Positions 13,451-55,300 of a stretch of DNA of 64,000 nt are shown here, in pieces. The notes under the pieces are model-generated. The model had not been told where the DNA came from. It was given only the letters and a program-made list of their open reading frames with translations, and did not search any database. Within the stretch, counting starts at the first letter, position 1; every line of letters starts with the position of its first letter. This DNA comes from an uncultured Erysipelotrichaceae bacterium (GTDB lineage Bacteria > Bacillota_I > Bacilli_A > RF39 > UBA660): positions 2,358 through 66,357 of the forward strand of contig CADCJQ010000010.1 of NCBI GenBank assembly GCA_902801795.1, read 5' to 3'. Made by a program: the position numbers and the translations under genes.

Positions 13451-14878
13451 TTAATATTGAATACCCCAAACGACATGATATTTTGCTTCTTTACCACAGC
13501 AAACACACTTATCATCAATTTTTTTACCATCTTCAACAATACATCTTGATTTACAACCTTTAATTTCTTTAATTTTTAATTCACAAGACTCATCACCACA
13601 CCACATAGCATGAATAAATCCTGGTTGTGTATTTAATATTTTTTCCATATCAGTTAAATTATGTGCTTCAAAAGTTAATTTATTTTGTCTTTCTAAAGCC
13701 TTATTATACATATCTTTTTGAATTGTTTCTAATAAATTAGTTATATATTCAACCGTTAATTCATCCTTTTTAATATTAATTTTTTCTCTTGTATCACGTC
13801 TTGCTACCGTAACAGTTCCATTTACTAAATCTCTTGCACCAATTTCTATTCTAATTGGTATACCATTAACTTCAGCTTCAGCAAATTTAAATCCTGGATT
13901 TTTTTCTGAATTATCAATATAACTTACGACATTATTGTCATTTAATTTTTTATTAAATTCACAACATAAGTTATTAACTTCCGTATTATCTTTACCAATT
14001 GGAATAATAACTACTTGCTTTGGCGCAATTCTTGGTGGAAGTACTAAACCATAATCATCTGCATGAACCATGATAATTGCTGCAATCATTCTTGTAGTTT
14101 TTCCCCAAGTTGTGTAATAAGCATATTCATCTTTGTTATCTTTATTTGTAAATTTAACATCATATGCTTTACTAAATTTTTGACCAAAGTAATGACTTGT
14201 TCCATCTTGTAAACATACACCATTATACATTAAATCTTCACAAGTAATAGTATATTCAGCACCAGCAAATTTTTCTTTTTCCGTCTTTTTACCAGAAATA
14301 GAAGGAATAGCTAAAATTTCATGATTAAACCACATATATACATCCATCATTCTTTTAGTTTCCCATTCAGCTTCTTCAGCAGTTGCATGAACTGTATGTC
14401 CTTCTTGCCATAAAAATTCTCTACTTCGAAGAAAAGGTCTTGTTTCTTTTTCATATCTAAATACATTACACCATTGATTATAAAGTTTTGGTAAATCTCT
14501 ATAAGAAGTAAGATGTTTTTTATAATAATCACAAAAAACCGTTTCAGAAGTAGATCTTATTGCATATCTATCCTCTAATTTTCTATCCCCTACTTCCGTT
14601 GCCCAAACTAATTCTGGAGCAAATCCTTCTATCAATTCTTTTTCTTGATTAAACAAATGTTCAGGAATTAACATTGGCATTTGTACATTAACATGACCCA
14701 TTTCTTTAAATTTCTTATCTAATATTGACTGTATTCTTTCCCATATTGCATATCCATTAGGTTCAATTGCAATACATCCTTTAACAGAAGTATAATCAGC
14801 AAGTTTTGCCGCTCTTACTACATCTGTATACCATTTTGCAAAATCAGTATCTCTCGATGTAATACTTTCATTTTTCAT
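13451..14878 (-). CDS. proS: Proline--tRNA ligase (archaeal/eukaryotic-type)
   Basis: FAKWYTDVV, LYNQWCNVFRYE, TRPFLRSREFLWQEGHT, C-terminal Zn-binding CVCCG; start after GGTGA RBS. Confidence 0.97.
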   Translation of the reverse strand: MKNESITSRDTDFAKWYTDVVRAAKLADYTSVKGCIAIEPNGYAIWERIQSILDKKFKEMGHVNVQMPMLIPEHLFNQEKELIEGFAPELVWATEVGDRKLEDRYAIRSTSETVFCDYYKKHLTSYRDLPKLYNQWCNVFRYEKETRPFLRSREFLWQEGHTVHATAEEAEWETKRMMDVYMWFNHEILAIPSISGKKTEKEKFAGAEYTITCEDLMYNGVCLQDGTSHYFGQKFSKAYDVKFTNKDNKDEYAYYTTWGKTTRMIAAIIMVHADDYGLVLPPRIAPKQVVIIPIGKDNTEVNNLCCEFNKKLNDNNVVSYIDNSEKNPGFKFAEAEVNGIPIRIEIGARDLVNGTVTVARRDTREKINIKKDELTVEYITNLLETIQKDMYNKALERQNKLTFEAHNLTDMEKILNTQPGFIHAMWCGDESCELKIKEIKGCKSRCIVEDGKKIDDKCVCCGKEAKYHVVWGIQY

Positions 14879-14948
14879 ATTTATCACCAACCTGTTACAA
14901 TTATACCATATATTTCGTAATTATATACTTTTCTTTTACATAAATATC

Positions 14949-15075
14949 AAAAAAATCAATCATTTCTGATTGATATCTATCTAAAAATTCGAACAGACTC
15001 GTCAATGATGCCAATTAGGTGAAGATTCCATAACCAATTCTTTATTATGCAGCAATAAATTCACTAACTGATTTA
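14949..15075 (-). ncRNA. Candidate structured small RNA ending in an intrinsic terminator
   Basis: Relatively GC-rich, ORF-less stretch with hairpins; terminator ATCAATCA-GAAA-TGATTGAT-T7 at 14949..14974. Confidence 0.4.
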
Positions 15076-15215
15076 ATTACAAAATAATATAATTTAATTT
15101 ATTTTCTACAATAAACTTGTTTTATTAAAAATATTATGTAATAATGTCTTTAGGAATATCTAGTTATATAGGTACTATTCCCCTTTACTTTTTTGAAGTG
15201 AAAGGGGGTGACATT

Positions 15216-15308
15216 ATGAGAAAAACTGAGAAATATCTTTGTACTATCATAATACTCCTTATTATTGTGATTTTAATCTTTCTAATAAAAATAGTACCAA
15301 CTGTATAA
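15216..15308 (+). CDS. 30-aa type I toxin-like membrane peptide, MRKTEKYLCTIIILLIIVILIFLIKIVPTV
   Basis: Strong RBS (AAAGGGGGTG) locked in a hairpin with CCCTTTACTT; single TM helix; terminator at 15330..15372. Confidence 0.75.
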   Translation: MRKTEKYLCTIIILLIIVILIFLIKIVPTV

Positions 15309-15375
15309 GTCGGTACTAGACTCTTTATAGGGAATAGTACCTAGCACACAAAAACTAGGTATTCCCTTTTTTATT
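15285..15375 (-). ncRNA. Candidate type I antitoxin RNA
   Basis: Antisense terminator TAGTACCGACT-TATAC-AGTTGGTACTA-TTTTT overlapping the toxin stop codon; TATAAT upstream. Confidence 0.6.
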
Positions 15376-15629
15376 ATATTCAAGTTCCCTTGACACATTC
15401 ATGATATCATAAAAAAGAACTTTTTTCAAGTTCATTTATTACACTCAAGAACAAAATATCCGAGTTTCATACTAATATGGTGCGATACAAGAGCCTATTT
15501 TGAACACTTATATCTAAAAGAACAACTAATAAATATCAGTTCTATATATAATATACCACATTTTTTACTATTAGTATATAAAATCATGTATTTTACAATA
15601 TAATAAAAGACAGATTATTGCTCTGCCTA

Positions 15630-31412: not shown

Positions 31413-32513
31413 TTATTGTGGTATTTTTATTACTTGACCAACCATTAAATTATTTGATAAATTGTTATTTATCGCTACAATTTCAGGAATAGTTGTATTA
31501 TAGCGTCTGGCAATAGAATACAAGGTATCTCCTTTTTGTACTTGGTATGTTTGATACTGAGTTTCCGTCATATCTAATGGTATTTGAATAACCTGTCCTA
31601 TTGATAAATTATTACTTGTTAAGCCATTATATGCTTTAATCGAATCAACTTTAGTATTATAACGTCTAGCAATGGAATATAGTGTATCACCTGGCATTAC
31701 TTCATATACAACAAAATTTTCCTCAGTAACTGGTTTTATAGGTATTACTATTTGTTGTCCAACAGATAAGATATTACTTGATAGATTATTGGCATTAATA
31801 AGATCATCAATCGTAACTCCATAGGTATTAGCAATACGATATAAAGTATCACCTCTTTTTACTATATAAACGTTTTCATTAGGATTAACCTCATTTCTTG
31901 GTATTTTTAGTGTTTCTCCTACTGTTAAAATAGTTGTTGGTAGTCCATTATAATCAATTAAATCAAGAACACTTATATTAAAGCGATTAGCAATCGAATA
32001 AAGACTATCGCCATTTTGAACCGTATATATTTCATACTCATCTTGCATTTCACCTTTTGGAAGTTCTAGTATTTGTCCAACAAATAAATTATTACTCGTT
32101 AAATTATTTAATCTCTTTAATTCATTAACTGTTGTTCCATAACGACTTGCTATTGAATATAAAGTATCTCCCTTTTGTACCGTATAAGAATCTCCACTAG
32201 CAATTGCTCCTGGTTGAATATAAGGAACACCAATATATTCAGAGACCGCTTTTACAACACCTTCTGCATAGTTTTCAATATTATTTTTTAATTTTGTTTG
32301 ATCTCTTGGATTATCAATAAACCCATATTCAATTAATAAAGCAGTTGTATTAGGTGTTTCTCTCATTATATAGTAATAATCTTTTTTAGGATTTTCTGGT
32401 AAAACCCGTTGATATACTTTACGTTTAATTTGGCCACGTGCCCCTATTTCATTTAAAATATTGTTAGCAAGAGTAGCACTTGAACGTAATGGGTAGACTA
32501 CTTCGGCACCTTC
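31413..32513 (-). CDS. 3' part of interrupted N-acetylmuramoyl-L-alanine amidase (Amidase_3 C-half plus 5 LysM)
   Basis: Open frame from 32513: EGAEVVY...YYYIMRETP...LLIEYGFIDN, then five LysM repeats; the ORF track shows only 31413..32366. Confidence 0.92.
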   Translation of the reverse strand, partial: EGAEVVYPLRSSATLANNILNEIGARGQIKRKVYQRVLPENPKKDYYYIMRETPNTTALLIEYGFIDNPRDQTKLKNNIENYAEGVVKAVSEYIGVPYIQPGAIASGDSYTVQKGDTLYSIASRYGTTVNELKRLNNLTSNNLFVGQILELPKGEMQDEYEIYTVQNGDSLYSIANRFNISVLDLIDYNGLPTTILTVGETLKIPRNEVNPNENVYIVKRGDTLYRIANTYGVTIDDLINANNLSSNILSVGQQIVIPIKPVTEENFVVYEVMPGDTLYSIARRYNTKVDSIKAYNGLTSNNLSIGQVIQIPLDMTETQYQTYQVQKGDTLYSIARRYNTTIPEIVAINNNLSNNLMVGQVIKIPQ

Positions 32514-32543
32514 GCCACCTGGCGTATGTCAAAATGTGATTAA
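32506..32543 (-). repeat. attR junction of integrated element
   Basis: Minus strand ACATTTTGAC-ATAC-GCCA-GG-TGGC-GAAGGT; core GGTGGC at 32514..32519. Confidence 0.88.
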
Positions 32544-32861
32544 TTACTTATTATTTTCAAATTCTTCACGATATACTTTAAAATATCCATATTTATCAAT
32601 AAATTTTATATTATCAACAGATTCATTAATTTCAAAAAATTTCATTGCTACTTTTGTAAAATCTAAATAGCCATGATCTAAATAATTATTTAAATTATCT
32701 TTTAAATATTCAATCGAATCATCGCTTTCTCCTTCAGCAGTAACAAAATCTAAATTATTGAAACATGTCTTTTCTCTATTGTATTGTGCAATATAAGTAA
32801 ATTCAATTTTTATTGTTTCGTTTTTTACTTTTATATCTCTTATTGAAGTTATCTCGGCCAT
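32544..32861 (-). CDS. Hypothetical protein (element cargo)
   Basis: 105-aa ORF, AGGTGA RBS, abuts the upstream gene. Confidence 0.7.
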   Translation of the reverse strand: MAEITSIRDIKVKNETIKIEFTYIAQYNREKTCFNNLDFVTAEGESDDSIEYLKDNLNNYLDHGYLDFTKVAMKFFEINESVDNIKFIDKYGYFKVYREEFENNK

Positions 32862-33452
32862 TTAATCACCTACTTCATATCCATTTTTAATATCCAGTAT
32901 TAATCCTTTTAATAAAGCATTATTGTTTTTTATATTAAAATTACGATAATCATATTTAATAGTTCTTTCATAACCAGGTGTAAAATAATGCTCAGAGTAT
33001 CCTTTCTTATCAACATCTTCAACTATTTCTTTCAATTCAAAATCGCATAAATCATCTAACATGCCACGACCAGCACCACTAATAATATATGGATAATGCT
33101 TACCATTATATTTTTCCATTTCTCTAGCACCTAAATAAGTGATTTTAAATGTAGTTGTTGATCCAAAGTCATACTCCATAGTCATTTTATTATTTTCATC
33201 AAAATTCACATCACTTAACTTTGTTCTAACTGCATCTTTAAAATTAAAATCATCTAACTCCAATGGATCAATCATGCAATCATATCTATCTTTTCCATGC
33301 TCTATATCATACAAATGATACGCAAGTGAATCAAATGTAGCAAGAATAGTATATGCTAAATCTGCAACTGTTCTTCTATCAGTTATTTCTATCTTTCTCC
33401 AAATTTTGTCTTCCACCCCTTCTATTCCTACTTGAAATGTTAGTACTTTAGT
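32862..33452 (-). CDS. Plasmid pRiA4b ORF-3-like protein
   Basis: KIWRKIEI...TVADLAYTILATFD...HLY...YDFGSTT pattern; start MTKVLTF after GGAGGT. Confidence 0.75.
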   Translation of the reverse strand, partial: TKVLTFQVGIEGVEDKIWRKIEITDRRTVADLAYTILATFDSLAYHLYDIEHGKDRYDCMIDPLELDDFNFKDAVRTKLSDVNFDENNKMTMEYDFGSTTTFKITYLGAREMEKYNGKHYPYIISGAGRGMLDDLCDFELKEIVEDVDKKGYSEHYFTPGYERTIKYDYRNFNIKNNNALLKGLILDIKNGYEVGD

Positions 33453-33473
33453 CATAAATCTTACCTCCAATTA

Positions 33474-33908
33474 CTAAAACATGTCATAATATGTGCCATT
33501 GTCAAAAGCATCTATTTGCTCCAAATAATGATTCATATTATCTTTTATTTCTCTACACAATTTCTTATAATTATCTATTGTCACATATGCTTTTTCACTC
33601 ATACATTCATAAAATTTCTTAATACTAGCAGCAGTCCCTTTTAATGAATGTCTTGATGACCATAAACATTTTTCTATAAACCATCCATCTAAAAATCCAT
33701 TAACAAAATGCACTCCATCTTCCATTGTTTCTGCATCATAATAATTTAAATAATCATTAATATATAAACTTGCATTATTAACGTGTTTTCTAATTATTTT
33801 CTTTGTTAAGGATTTTTCAATTAACCAGTTTTCAAATTCTTGAAGAAATTTCTCATTTCTTTTATGATTTTCTTCTTCTTTTTTCTCCCAATCTTTATAA
33901 TCATTCAT
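33474..33908 (-). CDS. Integrase N-terminal SAM-like domain protein (no catalytic domain)
   Basis: FENWLIEKSLTKKIIRKHVNNASLY...AASIKKFYECM pattern; only 144 aa. Confidence 0.55.
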   Translation of the reverse strand: MNDYKDWEKKEEENHKRNEKFLQEFENWLIEKSLTKKIIRKHVNNASLYINDYLNYYDAETMEDGVHFVNGFLDGWFIEKCLWSSRHSLKGTAASIKKFYECMSEKAYVTIDNYKKLCREIKDNMNHYLEQIDAFDNGTYYDMF

Positions 33909-33919
33909 ACTTTACTCCC

Positions 33920-35119
33920 TTATTTTAGTTCTATATTTTCTAATGGTTCCCATTTAATATATTTGAATATTTTAGCATCGCTCATGTGAATAAATTCAGT
34001 TGGTTTATATTTTTTAAAATATCCTCGACATTCAATTGGTATGATATCATTTGGAACTATACCTATATAATCAATACCTTTAAAGGCATTCTTAATCATA
34101 TCTACATTATATATTTCTAATGGTATATTATTTTTATTAAGCACAATAAATATTTTAGCGATTTCAACTTTTCTTAAAATTCTACTTCCACTAAGCGAAA
34201 GATAATATCCATTATCATCATGTCCTACTTGTAAATTAACTCTAGCAAAGGAATGACCTCTAATAATCTCCCAAGGATGTCCACCAAACCTTGTATCATC
34301 ATTATACCATTTATCAAATTCTTCACTACTATTCTCATCAATTTTGCTTAATCCTTCATCCCTACCATCAGCATACTTTAAATATAAATCCTTATCGGTT
34401 AATTCTCCTATTTCATAACCAATATTTTTATATGCCAATCCAACACATTCAAAATACTTACCAGATGTCATATCTTTTATTCTATTAGTTGTCTTTTCTC
34501 TAGCATTTTCTATAAAGTAATTCATTTCTTCTTGTGATATTTCACTTAATAGTTCTTGCCTAGTATCAGGAAACAAATTCCAATATTCATTTCGTTTTAT
34601 TACACCAAACCTATTTTTATAAGAATAATTACTTGATATATAATCATTGTAAGTACCTTTTTCAAGTCTTTGAATACATTCTTTTACTTTATCTATAAGA
34701 AAATCTAATAATTCTTGTAGTTGATAATTTTCAAAATTAGTATTCTCACTATTCATATCAGCATATATTATATTTTTTGAATTAATTGATATCATACGAT
34801 AGTTTTTATACATAGATGAAGTCATTTTATACCAAATAATTTCGTCTGGATAGTCTTCATTAAATCTATTTTCAAATTCTTCATAACTATCAACTTCACC
34901 ATCTATCTTTAACTCTTCAAAGTTGCCGTATTCTTCTATATTGCCTTTTTCAGCACTAAAATATAATACTTTATATTCATCATCTGATAATGGTTTTATT
35001 TTATCAAGTAAAGCATACAAATTATTTATCTTTTCTTTTACTTTCGTATCGTAACTCTCCGGGTTATAATTTCTACTATCCAACACTTCTAATAAAAAAT
35101 CTAATTTTGGAGCGGTCAT
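33920..35119 (-). CDS. Hypothetical protein (element cargo)
   Basis: 399 aa; contains GRDEGL and GGHPWEIIRG blocks; no family recognised. Confidence 0.75.
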   Translation of the reverse strand: MTAPKLDFLLEVLDSRNYNPESYDTKVKEKINNLYALLDKIKPLSDDEYKVLYFSAEKGNIEEYGNFEELKIDGEVDSYEEFENRFNEDYPDEIIWYKMTSSMYKNYRMISINSKNIIYADMNSENTNFENYQLQELLDFLIDKVKECIQRLEKGTYNDYISSNYSYKNRFGVIKRNEYWNLFPDTRQELLSEISQEEMNYFIENAREKTTNRIKDMTSGKYFECVGLAYKNIGYEIGELTDKDLYLKYADGRDEGLSKIDENSSEEFDKWYNDDTRFGGHPWEIIRGHSFARVNLQVGHDDNGYYLSLSGSRILRKVEIAKIFIVLNKNNIPLEIYNVDMIKNAFKGIDYIGIVPNDIIPIECRGYFKKYKPTEFIHMSDAKIFKYIKWEPLENIELK

Positions 35120-35138
35120 TTCAAAGTCACCTCCCTAC

Positions 35139-35396
35139 TTATTTTGTTATATATTTACTGATTAATTTTTTTGCTAATTCTTCTCCTTTAGGCGTTAAGA
35201 AAACTGATTTCCCTTTGCTATAATATAAATAATTCTCATCGGTTAATTTATTAATAATACCAAAATCATATCCTTTCCAACAAGTTTTAATTTTTGCTGC
35301 TTTAGGCATATCATTTTCATCAGCTACATATCCATCTTCTTCCCATGATGATAAGTACATTAATAATAATGTTAATTCTTCAACAATTTTCTCCAT
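35139..35396 (-). CDS. Small winged-helix-like protein (DUF6429-like)
   Basis: ELTLLLMYLSSW...WKGYDF...KSVFLTPKGEELA. Confidence 0.6.
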   Translation of the reverse strand: MEKIVEELTLLLMYLSSWEEDGYVADENDMPKAAKIKTCWKGYDFGIINKLTDENYLYYSKGKSVFLTPKGEELAKKLISKYITK

Positions 35397-35474
35397 TTAC
35401 TTCTCCTTCCTATTTCTATTATTTTGCTTTATTTATAATATATTTTTCAATAACAATTCTCGTTCTATATTTTA

Positions 35475-36005
35475 TTACTTTAATAAATCAGCTAAATATA
35501 ATTCATCTTTATTGTGCTTCTTCAAATGTTTATAATCATTTAAATTTTGAATTAGCATATTAATTCTTTTGCCACCATAATACATTTCTAAAAACTCTCT
35601 TGTTTGATCATATCTTCGATTATTATATACTATATTTCTTTTAGCAAAAGTTTTTGGAGATTCTTTTGATTTTAAAAACTGCTTATATAATCCTTCATTA
35701 ATTATTATAAGAATTTCTAATTCAGGCAAAGTACAATATTTATAAATTCTATCTTTAGATACAATATCACTTAAATCTTTTGGAACTGTAAACTTTTCTC
35801 TTTGGGTATCACCTATTCTTAATACTTTTACTGGATTATTATAAACTCTGAGTTCTGATTTTATAGTTGGATTAGTGAGTTGCCTTGCATGAAATGGTTT
35901 TAATGATACCAAATCATTTTGTGTAAAAATTAACTTCTTTTGATTTAATAACATATTAATAATACATATTTCGTTTGGACCTTCACACAAAATTAAATAC
36001 TTCAT
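35475..36005 (-). CDS. TOPRIM-like (RloB-like) partner protein
   Basis: N-terminal LILCEGPNE, LRIGDT, PELEILII; overlaps the ATPase stop by 4 bp. Confidence 0.6.
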   Translation of the reverse strand: MKYLILCEGPNEICIINMLLNQKKLIFTQNDLVSLKPFHARQLTNPTIKSELRVYNNPVKVLRIGDTQREKFTVPKDLSDIVSKDRIYKYCTLPELEILIIINEGLYKQFLKSKESPKTFAKRNIVYNNRRYDQTREFLEMYYGGKRINMLIQNLNDYKHLKKHNKDELYLADLLK

Positions 36006-37138
36006 TTCATTAATTCCCTTTTAAAATCCATTAATGATTCATAGTTAACATTTGTATTAAATGCATTACTATAAAATTTCTTACTTTTAGATAACTCTGG
36101 TCTAAAATTATAATCTCTATATACGTTCTCCAAACGAATTTTTTTATCATATTTTGTAATATAAATATTATCACTTCTATTAAACAAATCTAAAAGTTCA
36201 CAATAATGTGTAGTAAATATTAAAGTTGCATTTTTTTTGTTAACACTTTTATCTTTATACAAATTAACAAGATTTTCAACTAAAGTTTTATGAAAATGAT
36301 TTTCTATTTCATCTATCACTAAGTCTGTACCATTTTTAAGTGAATAAACAACATAAGTAAATAGCCAAATACCCTTTGATGTTCCACTTGATAGCATACT
36401 ATATAATTCTTTGCCAGTCACCTGGATTTTACTTTTATCAGTATAATATATTAAGAACTTATCTTCATTAATCATTTCAATATTATCTAAATGTTCATCA
36501 AGCATTTTTAAAATTGATTCAATGATTGTATGATTATTATTAATCATTTTATATACATTGAAAACATTAGAATATAATCTATAAATCAAATCGTCACTTG
36601 ATGTATAAAAGCCTCTAATAGTAATTTCTTTCAAAACATCATATAAAATAGAAGTATCATCAGGTAAATCAGTTGTAATAGGTAATTCAATATACTTATT
36701 ATAGTCAAAGATTTGTTTTGCTAAAGTCTTATAATATGGTCTTTTATATAACTTTTCATTTTTAAAATTAACAGTGTTATTTAGCGGATTATCATCTATA
36801 ACTAAATCAGTAATATATCTATATAAACTCCCCTCGTGATAAAAAGTAATATCCAAATTAACATCATTATGCCACATTAAAAATAAATTTAAAGTATTCT
36901 TAACCTTAAAGAATGAAAATATATCATATACTAGAGCTAACAAATCAACTGCTGTTGTTTTTCCTGATGCATTTTTACCAATAATACCTAACGTAGTATA
37001 TACGAATAGATTTTCATCAATTTCATGAAGTTCAAACTCTTTATCATCTGCTGTTTTATTTGCTTCTGGTACAAAAGATATTGTAAAATTATCTTCACAC
37101 AATTTAAAATTATTAGCAACAACCCTCAAAAGTTTCAT
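36002..37138 (-). CDS. ABC-type AAA ATPase (AAA_21/RloA-like), putative defence
   Basis: Walker A GKNASGKT, signature-like LSSGT, Walker B LVIDEIENHFH, FTTH. Confidence 0.85.
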   Translation of the reverse strand: MKLLRVVANNFKLCEDNFTISFVPEANKTADDKEFELHEIDENLFVYTTLGIIGKNASGKTTAVDLLALVYDIFSFFKVKNTLNLFLMWHNDVNLDITFYHEGSLYRYITDLVIDDNPLNNTVNFKNEKLYKRPYYKTLAKQIFDYNKYIELPITTDLPDDTSILYDVLKEITIRGFYTSSDDLIYRLYSNVFNVYKMINNNHTIIESILKMLDEHLDNIEMINEDKFLIYYTDKSKIQVTGKELYSMLSSGTSKGIWLFTYVVYSLKNGTDLVIDEIENHFHKTLVENLVNLYKDKSVNKKNATLIFTTHYCELLDLFNRSDNIYITKYDKKIRLENVYRDYNFRPELSKSKKFYSNAFNTNVNYESLMDFKRELMK

Positions 37139-37266
37139 ATAAATTTCCTCCTCACATTAATTATATCACTAAAGTTTAAAAAAATACATTTTTTTTGTTT
37201 TTTTTAAAATATATTTGTCTATAATACACTATATCATTAAAAAAATCAATATTTTTTTATATTTTT

Positions 37267-37448
37267 AAATTAAGCACCAGTGGAGCACAAGTTCATTTTC
37301 AAATAAAACATAATGTATAACTTCTGTCCAACTGGAACAGAAGTTAATGCGGAAGTTAACTTTGTATCCAGTGGAGACTAAGTTGTTTTTTTCTGCACCG
37401 TTGGTTGAGAAGTTAATTATTAACTTCGAACCCAGTGGGAACAAAGTT
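37267..37448. repeat. Array of five 27-bp palindromic units
   Basis: AACTT-N4-NCCAGTGGN-N4-AAGTT-like units at 37267, 37319, 37358, 37388, 37422. Confidence 0.8.
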
Positions 37449-37451
37449 AAC

Positions 37452-39035
37452 TTAAATATTATTTAGTAATGAAAACTTATAAAATATTTCAATATTTTTG
37501 TCTTTATCAATTACTATTTTATCAATAATTGATTGTAATAATTCACGAGATGGATTATCAAGATTAATTAGTTCTTTCATTTTTTCCTCGTATTCTTTAA
37601 TTTTCTTATTAGAATTTATTTCTTTTTTACTTGAATTTTTTATTTCATCAAGTCTTTTTTTTGATTGATTTAATAAAATTTCAGTTTCTTTTGATAATCT
37701 TAAATAAGTGTTTTCTGAAATATTTCCTTTAAACTTATCATCATAGAGCATGTCAATTTTACTATTACATTCTTTAATTCGATTATTTAAATAATTTATT
37801 TCATCATTTATTCTTTTATCATTATTATTTTTATTATTTATTTCTGTTGCTAATTCTTTAATATTCATTTTATCTAAATAAATCTTACAAGTATTTTTAA
37901 TAACATCTAATAAAGCTATTTCCAGTTTATCATAAGGCATAAAATGCGGATAGCACAAGTGTCTTCGGGGATCTCTTGAATATTTATTACAATTAATAGT
38001 CCAGTAATTATGTTTTTTACGATATGTTATTGTTAGAGAATTTCCACACTCTTTGCAAAAAAGTAAGTTTTCGAATAGTCTTTTTTCTCTTTTATTATGT
38101 GTAATTTTTGTTCTTTTAACATTATTTCTTACTTTATCAAAAACTTCTTTACTAACTAATGCTTCATGCGTATTTTCTACAATTATCCAAGAATCTCTTT
38201 GCAAAACAATCTTCTTTTGTGATTTATATGATAATTTAGTTTGAACATTTTGAATCATATTACCAGTATACATTTCATTTTTTAATATCTTTTTAACTGA
38301 TGATACTGTCCAGACAGGATTAATTCTTTGTTTAGAATTATCTTTTTTCTTATATAAACTTGGTGTAGGATATTTATTATCATTAAGAAAACTTGCAATA
38401 TCACTAACACTAATTCCAGAACTAGCCATTTCAAATATCTTTTTTACAATAAAAGCTGTTTCTGGATTAGGAACTAAATGCCCTTTATCTTCTTTATCAC
38501 GCATATAACCAAAAGATGGTTCGCTACCAATAAACTTTCCTTGTTCTTTCTTATTTCTTAAAATAGAACGAATCTTCTTAGATGTATCTTTACTAGTCAT
38601 ATCGTTAAATAAAGCTTTAAAAGGTGCTATATCGTTATTAGCTGTTTCTAAAAAAGTATCAATTTGATCAAGTATCGAAATATATCGTACTTTTTTAGCT
38701 AAAAAATAATCTTCAACATAATAGCCACATCTAATATAGTCTCTTCCTAATCTTGATAAATCCTTAGTTATTACACAATTAACCTTACCACTTTCAATAT
38801 CACTAATTAATCTTTTAAAACCTGGTCTATTAAAATTAGTTCCAGTAAATCCATCATCGACATATTCATCGATAAAAGTAAATCCTTTTTTCTTAATATA
38901 ATCCATTAGTAAATTTCTTTGATTAATAATACTTTCGCTTTCTGATTCGTAACTTTTGTTTTTATCTGCTTCAGATAATCTTATATATGCTGCTACCCTA
39001 TAAAAACTTGGTAATTCTAATGTTTTGTTATACAC
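37452..39035 (-). CDS. Large serine recombinase
   Basis: AAYIRLS catalytic Ser, DDGFTG...RPGF, TKDLSRLGRD, recombinase domain, Zn ribbon (CKECG), coiled coil; GTG start after AAAGGAG. Confidence 0.96.
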   Translation of the reverse strand: MYNKTLELPSFYRVAAYIRLSEADKNKSYESESESIINQRNLLMDYIKKKGFTFIDEYVDDGFTGTNFNRPGFKRLISDIESGKVNCVITKDLSRLGRDYIRCGYYVEDYFLAKKVRYISILDQIDTFLETANNDIAPFKALFNDMTSKDTSKKIRSILRNKKEQGKFIGSEPSFGYMRDKEDKGHLVPNPETAFIVKKIFEMASSGISVSDIASFLNDNKYPTPSLYKKKDNSKQRINPVWTVSSVKKILKNEMYTGNMIQNVQTKLSYKSQKKIVLQRDSWIIVENTHEALVSKEVFDKVRNNVKRTKITHNKREKRLFENLLFCKECGNSLTITYRKKHNYWTINCNKYSRDPRRHLCYPHFMPYDKLEIALLDVIKNTCKIYLDKMNIKELATEINNKNNNDKRINDEINYLNNRIKECNSKIDMLYDDKFKGNISENTYLRLSKETEILLNQSKKRLDEIKNSSKKEINSNKKIKEYEEKMKELINLDNPSRELLQSIIDKIVIDKDKNIEIFYKFSLLNNI

Positions 39036-39263: not shown

Positions 39264-39746
39264 TTAATTAAAATCTTTTAGTACATTATTTAGTTCTTGC
39301 TGTTCTTCGCGAGTTGGTATTTCTTTCTTTAAAATCTTTCCATTCCAATATTCATTACCCAAATCATCTTTATAATACTTATTATTTATATTACTTTTAT
39401 TATTATATTTAAACTTAGGTTGAATACTGGTATTATAGTTTTCTTTAATACTATTTAAACTTTTAATTAATACTTGTGAAATTCTTATAATTCGTTTATA
39501 ACTATTATTATTTTCCATATGGTTTTCTAAATTAATATAACTTAAAGAGGCTAAATGATTAATACTTTTAGATATTGTTTGTTTGCTATATCCATAAATA
39601 TTCATAAAATACTTATTAGTAGCCCAACAATATCCGGCTTTTTTGCACAATGAAATAATGTTCACCAATAATAACTTTTCTAAAGATGATATTCTTCTAT
39701 CACTTAATACTGATATTGGTATAAGCGGTTTTATATATTTTTCCAT
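39264..39746 (-). CDS. HTH replication-initiator-like protein (phage replisome-organizer N-domain)
   Basis: EKLLLVNIISL...GYCWATNKYF...SKQTISKSINHLASLSYI. Confidence 0.75.
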   Translation of the reverse strand: MEKYIKPLIPISVLSDRRISSLEKLLLVNIISLCKKAGYCWATNKYFMNIYGYSKQTISKSINHLASLSYINLENHMENNNSYKRIIRISQVLIKSLNSIKENYNTSIQPKFKYNNKSNINNKYYKDDLGNEYWNGKILKKEIPTREEQQELNNVLKDFN

Positions 39747-40192: not shown

Positions 40193-40225
40193 AGTTACAT
40201 TTTGACCAATGCCACCGCCGGCATT
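40193..40225 (-). repeat. attL junction of integrated element
   Basis: Minus strand AATGCCGGC-GG-TGGC-ATTG-GTCAAAATGT; core GGTGGC at 40211..40216. Confidence 0.88.
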
Positions 40226-40477
40226 AATGTGATTAGATAAGACTATTACATTAGGATCAGTTCCAAGACTTCGCATGGTATTTAATCTTTCATTTCTAGT
40301 TAATGTTTTATCTGTATCACGAGTAATAGTTACTGGTACACCTAATTCTTTAAAACGATTGTACATGTAATTAGCGGCTTGCAAAGTAAAGTCTTTTTCT
40401 CTTAAATTACCTGATACTGCTCCAGGGTCATTTCCTCCATGACCTGCATCAACTACTATTCGATATTTATCATTCAT
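40211..40477 (-). CDS. 5' part of interrupted N-acetylmuramoyl-L-alanine amidase
   Basis: MNDKYRIVVDAGHGGNDPGA...LREKDFTL...SNHINAGGG; 89 codons up to the att core. Confidence 0.92.
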
Positions 40478-52300: not shown

Positions 52301-55300
52301 CTAGGAGAAGACAACGCATTTAATGTCGTACCATTTTCTTTAACAATTAAATATCCATTACCTGATACTATATTATCATGATTAACATATGATGTAACTT
52401 GTCCCGTTCCTGATTGAATATCTACTTCACCAATTCCATTTTTATTAGCACCACCATATACATTACCTTCAATAGTACCACCATCAATTTTTAAAGTAAC
52501 ATCATCAGTTACATTTCCATAATTTCCACCACCGTACACACTACCATATATTTTAGCATCGTTAGGAACATCATTATTACCATTTCCTGCTCCTAACACA
52601 GAACCATAACTAACACCATATAATTCACCACTACCAATTGTTCCAATTTTAGCTTTACCACCTATATGAACATTTGTACTTCCTTGCATTTTTCCAGATT
52701 GTTGTCCGGTAGAATCAGTAGCAAAAACACCATTACTTCCACCAGAAACACTATATTCTATATCTCCACCAGTAACAGAAATATATCTATTACCATAAGT
52801 TGTAGATACACCAGCGCCACCTACTATATTAGTAACCTTACCTGCTTTAACATATATCTTGGTAGCAACACTATCTTGGTAGCTTGAGTAAAGACGAAGA
52901 CCGCCTACAATATTAGAAACATATCCCCCTTCCATAACCAATACCCTAGGTGAAATATCAGTCGTAGAACTAGTTGCATTTACTGTAAGACCGCCAACAT
53001 ATATACCGGAATAAGCACGATTTTCATCAGTTGGATTATCATTAAAATACTTATATCCAATATTTCCACTTTTTACATTAATTAAATAAGCAGGTTCTGA
53101 AGAACTAGTCTTACCAACAATTCCGTAATTATTTGAACTTCCTGCACGATAATAAATTTGTAAATGATCATTCGTATTGGAAACTCGATCATAATCATTT
53201 CCTAAAACAAATGTCATTTTGCCATAATAATTAACGGCATTATTGGAACTATAATTACCATCATTAGCAATACGAACACCCATAATAGATGAATATCTTC
53301 CAGTTTCAATAACAAAACGATAATCATTATTATGACTATTACTACTTCCTAAAGAACTAGAATCACTTCCACCATAAGCAATACCAAAAATAGATGATGA
53401 ATTATCAGCCCATGAAGTAGGATTCATCCCTCTTCCAATTCTAACATTATTATAATTACCTTCTAATACGGCATATGTTTCACTATAATCAGTTGTTGTT
53501 GTTCCATTTGTTACCGCATTATATCCACTTGCAGCAATTGATAAATATTCAAGTTGTAAATCATTATAAGCTGAAACAAAAGCATAACCATAATCAACAT
53601 CATCTGTTAAATCTAAAGTTACATCATTTCTATAATCAACATGATTATATAAACTAGTTATTGTTACTGCCACATTATTACTACTTGTATAATTATTATT
53701 TGATGTCATATTACCAGTATTAGTTGTTCTTATTTCCCTTTCAACGGTATAAGTAGCAAAATTAAATCTATTATTAGAATCAACATCTCTTATCTCAAAA
53801 CCATTATTATATCTTAAATAATAATTAACTATATTACTAACATAATTGGTATCAACTGTTTTTAAAGATATTGTTGTATTATTTCCAATAGTATCAACAA
53901 GACCCCATTCGTTATTACTAAAAGATAGATAAACATTAGTATTTTGATAACTACTATTTGTAACCCTAGATGTAAAATATAATTCTGTCGCTTGATTTGC
54001 ATTGGTTGTTGTTGACCATGCACCATTATTATATCTTAAATAATATCTAGTATTAGTATTTCTTTGATAATATAAATAATGATTACTAGAATTATACATC
54101 CAAACTCTTTGTGTATTACTAGTTGATAATGTACCATTATTACTACTATATAAATACCTATTATTTCTAACATTTCTTACTGTATAACCACTACCGTAAT
54201 TATTTAATAACCACTGACTAGCATCAGTTGGTTCAGTATCGGTCATATCAAAATAAGTTAGAGCATTACCATTTACCGATAAAGCAATTAAATTACTATC
54301 ATTACCATTAGTTATATAATAATTACTTCCACTATTGATGTAATTAGCATGATTATATGAATATGTTATATAATTAATTAAAGTTTGTCGATAAAATGCA
54401 TTATTTACATTATCATAATTCCATACCGAAGGATTATTAACAAGTGTTAAATCCGCTCCATTATTACCATTATCAACACTTGATAAATATCTATTATTAT
54501 TATTTTTAAAAGTATATCCTCCGTTTTCATTGGTAACAGTCCATAAAGCACTTGCATCATAATTTCTATTATCAAAACTAACATTAGATAAATTATTATT
54601 TAAAGTATTACTTTCAGATGTATTGGTAACAAGATATTTTTCACCACTAACAATATTATCTACATCATTATAAGTATATTCATTATATGATAAATCAACT
54701 ACAGTATAAAATTTTCTACTCGTACTATCATAATCCCATAAAGTAGCATTATTACTCATATTTAAAGTTACATTATTACCATTTACTACAAAAGATAAAT
54801 ATCTATTTGTATCATAATTTCTAATAGAATATAAACCATTACTTTCCGTAATAATCCATTTAGTATCATCCGAAGGTTCAACCATAGTAGATAGTATAGT
54901 ATAATCAACACCATTATCATCTGTTAAAGCATACCTTGTATTACCAACCATATATTCAATAATATGAGGATTATTATCAAAAGTCGTTTTATCATTATAA
55001 TTAACAGTAATATTATATGTATGAGTGATGCTCCTAGAATAATTAGGACTCATTGACAAATCACCAATTAATACAATAATATTTCTTTCACGATCATTTA
55101 TATCAGTACTATTATTTTGTAAAAGACTAAAGGCTCTTCCCCAAGATCCAACGGCATCATCCGGTGTACTACCATCAAAATTATCATCACCCAATGTTCC
55201 TTTTAGATATACAACATGAGCATTAATCCAATTAGCATAAATATTAACAGTTTGATTATTACCAGATTTTGTAACCTTAATTGTTTGTACATTTGTCTTA

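Follow-up and report, generated by a model that had tools for sequence, protein, structure and literature searches.

To our knowledge, centromere mimicry has so far been shown for one island/plasmid pair, SGI1 and IncC. Two parS mimics on SGI1 are bound by the ParB protein of IncC, its helper plasmid; they stabilise the island and drive out the plasmid (Muranyi et al. 2024, PMC10954446). This is the nearest published case to the locus described here. Among ParB-family CTPase clamps, KorB of RK2 loads at OB operators and controls promoters at a distance (McLean et al. 2025, PMC11790492), and BisD of ICEclc is a similar clamp (PMC12409273). KorB and BisD both act on their own element, and all sites of each share one sequence. 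Sites for ParB can also be clustered, as in sopC of F, where near-identical tandem repeats lie next to the plasmid's own sopAB genes, or placed within a gene, as in Bacillus subtilis, where a parS lies inside spo0J. Canonical parS is 16 bp and conserved across species, and the KorB operator is an odd-length palindrome. Imperfect palindromes of 25-34 bp, such as res, hix and gix, cluster irregularly beside serine recombinase genes; they are of even length, with a central dinucleotide and one half-site consensus, and serine recombinases make a 2-bp staggered cut.

The 64-kb stretch of DNA analysed here (the window) holds a 7.7-kb island that, like SGI1, appears to be integrated and excisable, to lack ParAB and to bear sites resembling the centromere of another element. 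SGI1 has two copies of one specificity, in Gammaproteobacteria, with ParB binding proven, whereas the window island has four to five copies (up to nine in its relatives) with different cores, in a serine-recombinase island of small-genome gut Bacilli. Unlike the operators of KorB and BisD, its putative sites would lie on an element other than the one that carries the ParB gene, and they differ from one another. They resemble sopC in being clustered and repeated, and the family resembles the spo0J site in lying within a parB frame; however, at 27 bp with a variable core, it is distinct from canonical parS. It also departs from res, hix and gix in its odd length, its variable cores and its presence in parB of tyrosine-integrase elements. 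A literature search found no paper on a mapped parS of this ParB clade or on such islands.

The insertion splits an Amidase_3-LysM gene between chromosomal housekeeping and surface-protein genes, and all genes concerned are on the minus strand. The island runs from attL through small ORFs, an HTH_36 gene, a large serine recombinase (LSR) gene, the palindromes, an AT-rich spacer, the gene for an AAA_21 ATPase with its 176-aa partner and five further genes to attR:

40201 to 40230, minus strand: attL junction, amidase ...AATGCCGGC GGTGGC (40216-40211), then the island arm ATTGGTCAAAATGT; read from the sequence
39264 to 39746, minus strand: HTH_36 protein, 160 aa; PF13730, PHROG replication initiation protein (1e-15)
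37452 to 39035, minus strand: LSR, 527 aa; Resolvase, Recombinase and Zn_ribbon_recom domains, PHROG integrase (1e-100)
37139 to 37266, minus strand: very AT-rich spacer, 13% G+C, that precedes the cargo operon and contains a promoter-like TTGATT-17-TATTAT (37249-37221); read from the sequence
36002 to 37138, minus strand: first cargo gene, AAA_21 ATPase, AbiLi-like; PF13304, PADLOC AbiLi (4e-37)
32544 to 36005, minus strand: remaining variable cargo (176 aa, DUF6429, 399 aa, 144 aa, PRiA4_ORF3, 105 aa); domain and gene calls
32511 to 32545, minus strand: attR junction, island arm TTAATCACATTTTGACATACGCCA, GGTGGC (32519-32514), after which the amidase continues with GAAGGTGCC; read from the sequence

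The arms at the two ends of the island, ACATTTTGAC and GTCAAAATGT, are mutually inverted, and in about 30 homologues the 3' part of the amidase likewise follows the element. Domain, PADLOC and PHROG searches of the island found no ParA/ParB genes and no tyrosine recombinase. The LSR, the readable attL and attR and the split amidase thus place it, as SGI1, among integrated and probably excisable elements that have no partition genes of their own, and we regard it as a likely small excisable defence island.

The palindromes occupy 37267-37448. On one side lies the LSR stop codon (37452-37454, minus strand), on the other the AAA_21 cargo gene, which starts at 37138; the array is about 130 bp upstream of the defence cargo. 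The initial annotation had described five 27-bp palindromes at this position; they are real, and the sequence is as described. On closer reading, four of the palindromes are good and one is degenerate, and the array also contains a truncated half-site that the earlier list of copies lacked:

37422 to 37448, no strand assigned: palindrome closest to the LSR stop, AACTTCGAACCCAGTGGGAACAAAGTT; 0 mismatches to the pattern, 10/13 arm pairs
37388 to 37414, no strand assigned: degenerate copy; 7/13 arm pairs, left outer pentamer gone
37358 to 37384, no strand assigned: palindrome AACTTTGTATCCAGTGGAGACTAAGTT; 0 mismatches to the pattern, 11/13 arm pairs
37346 to 37357, no strand assigned: truncated half-site AATGCGGAAGTT, abutting the next palindrome; read from the sequence
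37319 to 37345, no strand assigned: palindrome AACTTCTGTCCAACTGGAACAGAAGTT, the best hairpin former; 11/13 arm pairs, -8 kcal/mol as ssDNA
37267 to 37293, no strand assigned: distal, partly decayed copy AAATTAAGCACCAGTGGAGCACAAGTT; 9/13 arm pairs

The general layout is AACTT-N17-AAGTT, and good copies read AACTT-N5-CCA(N)TGG-N5-AAGTT. The copy nearest the LSR begins 4 nt past the stop codon. In the degenerate copy, the lost pentamer reads TTTTT on the plus strand and AAAAA on the LSR-sense strand, where the left half AACTTCTCAACCA is unbroken. On the LSR-sense strand, the half-site shows AACTTCCGCATT fused directly to AACTTCTG, which we interpret as a probable deletion or recombination scar, and the distal copy has GTGCT in both arms in direct instead of inverted orientation. 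Several window copies are decaying. The cores are moderately self-complementary and form mostly weak single-strand hairpins (-1.2 to -8 kcal/mol).

We scored the pattern AACTT-N5-CCAGTGG-N5-AAGTT at no more than three mismatches and found eight strand matches in the 64-kb window, all in the array, against 0.18 expected; none of 100 shuffles reached eight. Across the whole assembly (1.51 Mb, 71% complete), the motif occurs at the array locus only, besides one chance-like match with two mismatches. The initial annotation had excluded a CRISPR array, a simple terminator and a likeness to the att arms of the island, and we reach the same view on each: the spacing is irregular (30-52 bp), the repeat cores differ and some copies abut; there is neither a U tract nor a terminator call at the array; and the palindromes do not resemble ACATTTTGAC or GTCAAAATGT. 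Between 36900 and 39400, no terminator-like site was called apart from one elsewhere, and a permissive Rfam search of 36500-38000 gave no match in the array and just two chance-level matches outside it. An intrinsic terminator was further rejected on the ground that the cargo start codons of relatives closely follow the hairpin; in single-copy islands, the start codon lies within about 45 nt, so that the hairpin can be no efficient terminator there.

The same motif recurs inside parB genes. Allowing one mismatch at most, the family-wide motif matched in 31 of 400 related genomes, compared with two for the reversed control. About 13 of the single matches fell inside a gene of 300-350 aa with ParB_N and HTH_ParB domains, always at codons (L)TSxP/QxxxK(L), just before the ParB helix-turn-helix. 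Most of 30 parB genes picked by protein similarity alone had a 25-31 bp palindrome at the same spot, several of them perfect (for example TTAACTTCGACACAACTTGTGTCGAAGTTAA), as did homologous parB genes of an Enterococcus faecalis plasmid (LR962508), a Cohnella plasmid and Monoglobus. The neighbours of the parA-parB operons that contain the motif are an integrase (tyrosine or serine), a thioester (TED)/SpaA adhesin and a sortase, which is the layout of a conjugative element; only one site was found per 15-20 kb of each such element. The N-domain of these ParB proteins aligns with CTPase ParB, Noc and KorB structures. The window copies share with the parB-internal palindromes the 27-bp layout, the outer pentamers, C11/G17 and the centre types. 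By these features they belong to the site class associated with a ParB clade, a class that we read as parS from its position and from its covariation with the recognition helix (see below).

The parB-internal site also seems to leave a mark on the protein. In the ParB linker of L082-L111 and L171-L173, the mutually complementary outer blocks TTAACTT/AAGTTAA code for the conserved residues L-T-S and K-L, and the palindrome arms code for the variable ones; the linker sequence thus appears, as read from these genes, to be shaped by the DNA site. In the window, a 59-aa ORF covers the entire array (37265-37444, minus strand) and reads the first palindrome in frame as TLFPLGSKL. This likeness to a ParB linker is a by-product of the common DNA motif and no evidence of a gene.

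The two arms of a site vary together. In the parB set, 72% of inner positions paired within a site, compared with 35% when arms were shuffled between sites. Among 45 island copies, 84.3% of cells paired versus 69.7% in shuffles, with a covariation score of 0.389 versus 0.148 (0/500 shuffles), and sliding the partners by 1-3 columns left pairing at only 32-46%. Such covariation could reflect either hairpin formation or recognition of both half-sites by a dimer whose specificity differs between systems. The discriminating test set arm distance against ParB segment distance, controlled for the rest of the protein. In 31 related ParB/site pairs, arm distance correlated with the distance of the 10-residue recognition helix (partial r 0.32, 0/2000 permutations), whereas four equally close segments of 10-13 residues gave r of 0.01-0.07. 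Furthermore, the same helix went with the same arms even across orders: GESKNQ accompanies GTTCCC...GGGAA arms both in the window's family and in Cohnella. In these few, related sequences, the association points to recognition of the variable arms by ParB in duplex DNA; such reading would give each element a private parS and would also account for the symmetry of the site.

If the palindromes acted instead as single-stranded hairpins, in RNA where the recombinase message has its 3' end or in DNA made single-stranded by transfer or replication, some factor would bind them by their structure together with the conserved hairpin base, and the outcome could be message stabilisation or processing, insulation of the recombinase from the cargo, or priming. 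Stems that covary above a conserved hairpin base are a classic signature of a single-stranded structural element. The first hairpin always starts 3-6 nt past the stop, its stem can differ greatly (in some sister islands it is not of the AACTT type), and the RNA of the array folds better than shuffles (z = -4.7). However, the array has no U tract, no terminator call and no Rfam match, and most window copies are weak hairpins although their outer and central blocks are kept. Wobble mismatches showed no clear strand bias (G-T over A-C, 23 versus 16, not significant), and in parB genes coding-strand composition confounds this measure. Nor is there an obvious RNA role for a stable hairpin midway through the parB frame, and the link between arms and helix points to a protein that reads the duplex. 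Overall, we consider the hairpin explanation unlikely.

We assign a probability of about one half to the reading that the palindromes are orphan parS-like sites, of several specificities, for the ParB of other elements. The palindromes would then be double-stranded ParB-type sites made of AACTT, a symmetric variable core of 17 bp and AAGTT. Conjugative elements and plasmids of Firmicutes carry one such site in their own parB, where each ParB dimer would read its private arms through the helix-turn-helix, and the island offers four to five sites with different cores behind its recombinase gene without a ParA/ParB of its own. Most probably, ParB of a co-resident or incoming conjugative element would load onto these orphan sites, with one of three outcomes. 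The excised island might ride the partition machinery of the other element (a hijack); the sites might titrate ParB and destabilise that element (a jam); or a sliding ParB-CTP clamp might be placed beside the recombinase gene and the cargo promoter (a sense function). The initial annotation had proposed an operator array for a dimeric regulator. Its core idea, sites for a dimeric protein, is the best supported, given the motif shared with parB genes and the covariation of arms and helix, but the likely binder is the ParB of another mobile element rather than a regulator encoded by the island.

We use the label "orphan" because neither the island nor the 71% of the genome that is assembled has a cognate parAB or any intact ParB of the motif type. 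In the four array-bearing genomes that we checked, three of them at least 95% complete, this type of ParB was absent, and only chromosomal ParB/Noc paralogues were present. The host ParB/Noc was rejected as the binder, since the assembled chromosome has the motif nowhere else. On another contig, the window genome does carry an ICE-type parA followed by a truncated parB (G000 contig C5, about 52,889-53,858; L194 12889-13858). This parA is 60% identical to that of a related conjugative element; the parB breaks off after about 63 codons, far short of where the palindrome would lie, and is followed by a 1055-aa ORF.

We then compared island copies with ParB-internal sites. The mean distance to the nearest such site was 5.45 mismatches, against 6.14 +/- 0.23 in a column-resampled null (2/500 as low), and one sister-island copy is identical to the site in a G240 parB at 25 of 27 positions. 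Each window copy lies five mismatches from its nearest neighbour in a sample of about 34 ParB-internal sites, which is uninformative either way, and specific matching of window copies to known ParB codes was dropped. Several window copies are also poor palindromes, which counts against the ParB reading. The idea that island copies are captured parB fragments was rejected; by eye, the one closest pair, the first copy of L076 and the L088 parB site, has no likeness beyond the 27 bp.

The damage seen in the window might mean that its array is a decaying relic without present function. One copy is degenerate, one is a truncated half-site and one has a damaged outer pentamer; moreover, the assembly has no cognate ParB, and its sole ICE-type parB is truncated. 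However, in three copies the outer pentamers are undamaged and 10-11 of 13 positions still pair, values also seen among ParB-internal sites; many islands retain the feature, and the assembly is only 71% complete. A relic is thus highly improbable in our view.

The initial annotation had asked whether the motif occurs in homologous elements, and we found it in most homologous islands. About 40 LSR homologues are inserted in the same amidase codon; a search of viral contigs for relatives of the LSR found none. A first scan of LSR homologues with the strict window consensus recovered the motif in L007 only, and a search with a relaxed centre directly behind the stop recovered it in most islands of the window's clade. 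In this clade, HTH_36 always lies directly upstream of the LSR, variable cargo lies between the LSR and attR, and zero to nine palindromes per island follow the LSR stop at the same core/cargo joint: nine in L154, eight in L151 and L152, six in L076, five in L077 and L153, three in L078 and two in L007. Ten of 14 other islands fetched have a single palindrome 3-6 nt past the stop, and most sister islands have one at +3 to +6. The cargo behind it varies from the AbiLi-like module of the window to PDC-S13/Bro-N with a TPR protein in G129 and PDC-S01 (AAA_14/DUF4143) in G063.

This enrichment is also seen when sites are picked by their outer pentamers alone. Behind LSR genes, 37 distinct sites in 10.7 kb had 5.65 of 8 inner positions complementary, compared with 2.74 of 8 for 35 background sites in 222 kb, so that the density behind the LSR is about 22 times the background; the top three background sites are themselves parB-internal.

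An LSR clade of 63-67% identity (L008-L034) has neither palindromes nor HTH_36, and only about 140 bp separate its LSR from attR. These elements are inserted at the same amidase codon with the 5' part of the amidase more than 6 kb upstream, and they are probably prophage-sized elements that share attB.

In single-palindrome islands (L155-L170), a conserved (G/A)TACATA(A/G)A...GATAAACTACTTATA follows the hairpin, 40-60 nt past the LSR stop. Often a few to about 45 nt separate this conserved stretch from the ribosome-binding site and start codon of the variable cargo, which makes the core/cargo boundary very sharp. As a general joint mark this stretch was rejected: it marks the core/cargo joint of single-copy islands and is missing from the window's array.

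Comparison of sister islands shows how arrays differ. Between the LSR 3' end and the last palindrome that they share, L076 and L077 have about 91% identity, and they diverge right after it. The last palindromes of L076, together with its PDC-S13 cargo, correspond to the single palindrome and the same cargo in L168 and L162, and the first palindromes of L158 have their counterparts in the last ones of L153. Cargo modules therefore take palindromes along with them, and stacking can enlarge an array. It seems that an array grows when cargo modules bring their own palindrome, one per incoming module, and the half-site and mismatched-arm copies of the window fit such stacking events.

Stacking of this kind also bears on the other proposal of the initial annotation, a stack of recombination sites or scars left by serial cargo swapping, and on its stronger form, in which the palindromes are recombination sites or mere scars of cargo-module exchange and nothing more. 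The palindromes mark the core/cargo joint; the shared last palindromes and cargo of L076, L168 and L162, the match between L153 and L158, and the divergence of L076 and L077 at a palindrome edge all fit exchange, as do the truncated half-site and the hybrid-looking, mismatched-arm copies of the window. The scar idea therefore retains some support, from modules that carry their own palindrome, sister breakpoints at palindrome edges and the window half-site. On the other side, the palindromes are poor crossover sites for a serine recombinase: an odd length with one central base misfits a 2-bp staggered cut, and the palindromes are unlike the att arms. No genes separate the closely packed copies, as they would in an array of integron cassettes. 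We looked at internal cargo-cargo joints and found no palindromes there, and the conserved site inside parB is left unexplained. As an account of the palindromes in full, we regard recombination sites or scars as very unlikely.

Two specific classes of recombination site were rejected as well. Crossover or accessory sites of the att, res or hix type do not fit 27 bp with a single central base and unrelated att arms (ACATTTTGAC/GTCAAAATGT), and integron attC/attI sites do not fit an island with no tyrosine recombinase and no palindromes at internal cargo joints.

The palindromes are no better conserved than the spacers. In orthologous arrays, 76% of palindrome columns are invariant, compared with 80% of spacer columns and 92% at the 3' end of the LSR; core changes occur on both arms together, and cores turn over between close relatives. 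Palindromes that evolve about as fast as or slightly faster than the spacers fit an arms race and also fit weak constraint. One orthologous pair (L077 +248 and L151 +255) looks as if the core had been flipped, with mismatched C/T becoming A/G between collinear flanks; this may reflect inversion or template switching within a quasi-palindrome.

We next weighed whether the sites serve the island's own HTH_36 protein, either as iterons of a post-excision replication origin with the 13% G+C stretch or as an operator of the recombinase or cargo. The N-terminal domain of HTH_36 resembles that of replication initiators (the origin-binding domain of phage initiators), the protein matches PHROG replication-initiation families, and it is present in every island of the window's clade. 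Dyad-symmetric repeats beside an AT-rich stretch have an origin-like layout, L076, L077 and L151 have an AT-rich spacer between copies, and an unrelated element, L060, has a perfect palindrome 230 bp upstream of an HTH_36-like gene. Origin iterons would be several near-identical repeats that bind one initiator beside an AT-rich unwinding region; the island has an initiator-like protein and an AT-rich stretch. However, the copies of one array share the outer pentamers only, and their different 17-bp cores could hardly be read by a single binder. The cores turn over between close relatives while HTH_36 is conserved, many islands have a single copy only, and parB genes carry the motif even in elements and genomes that lack an HTH_36 homologue, such as G003. 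In addition, 20 more distant HTH_36-integrase pairs showed no such palindromes in 105 kb. We judge a role as HTH_36 sites to be rather unlikely.

Distant homologues of HTH_36 (L174-L193, 27-34% identity) lie almost always immediately upstream of a serine or tyrosine integrase, which suggests a conserved functional pair; HTH_36 could be its directionality factor, regulator or initiator. Some LSRs in this set (32-34% identity) also adjoin amidase gene fragments.

Returning to sites for foreign ParB, we consider tentatively a more specific form, which is possible though doubtful on the sequences at hand: the array may be a decoy or tripwire of several specificities, a set of centromere mimics in which each arm code fits the private ParB of a different element. 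The ParB of an invader would be captured and the invader destabilised, so that jamming of partition would serve as anti-plasmid defence. Alternatively, ParB-CTP clamps beside the recombinase or cargo promoter would let the island sense the invader and then excise, spread or activate its cargo. A corollary, if this were true, is that the ParB clade has diversified into many private specificities that are written into the parB reading frame.

If ParB does bind the orphan sites, centromere mimicry would extend beyond Gammaproteobacteria to widespread serine-recombinase defence islands of uncultured gut Bacilli, with several specificities instead of one. It might shed light on how small islands with neither transfer nor partition genes are maintained and interact with larger elements. 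The site in parB, with arms that track the helix, would offer a testable handle on the diversification of partition systems in Firmicutes conjugative elements. The palindromes also mark the exact joint at which defence cargo is exchanged and are a practical flag for cargo in metagenomes.

Two minor observations concern other elements. In L076, the sister island from G129, a reverse transcriptase gene (RVT_1, 411 aa, 14346-15581) lies upstream of HTH_36, so that cargo is also found between attL and the core. L058, L060 and L068 each have a single palindrome of the array's family, perfect or nearly so, which is intergenic and near the end of another integrated element, in one case beside tRNA-Asn; in L060, the HTH_36-like gene downstream of the palindrome is followed by a 151-aa protein with a shared C-terminal WNG...P.T.EEQ.EL motif.
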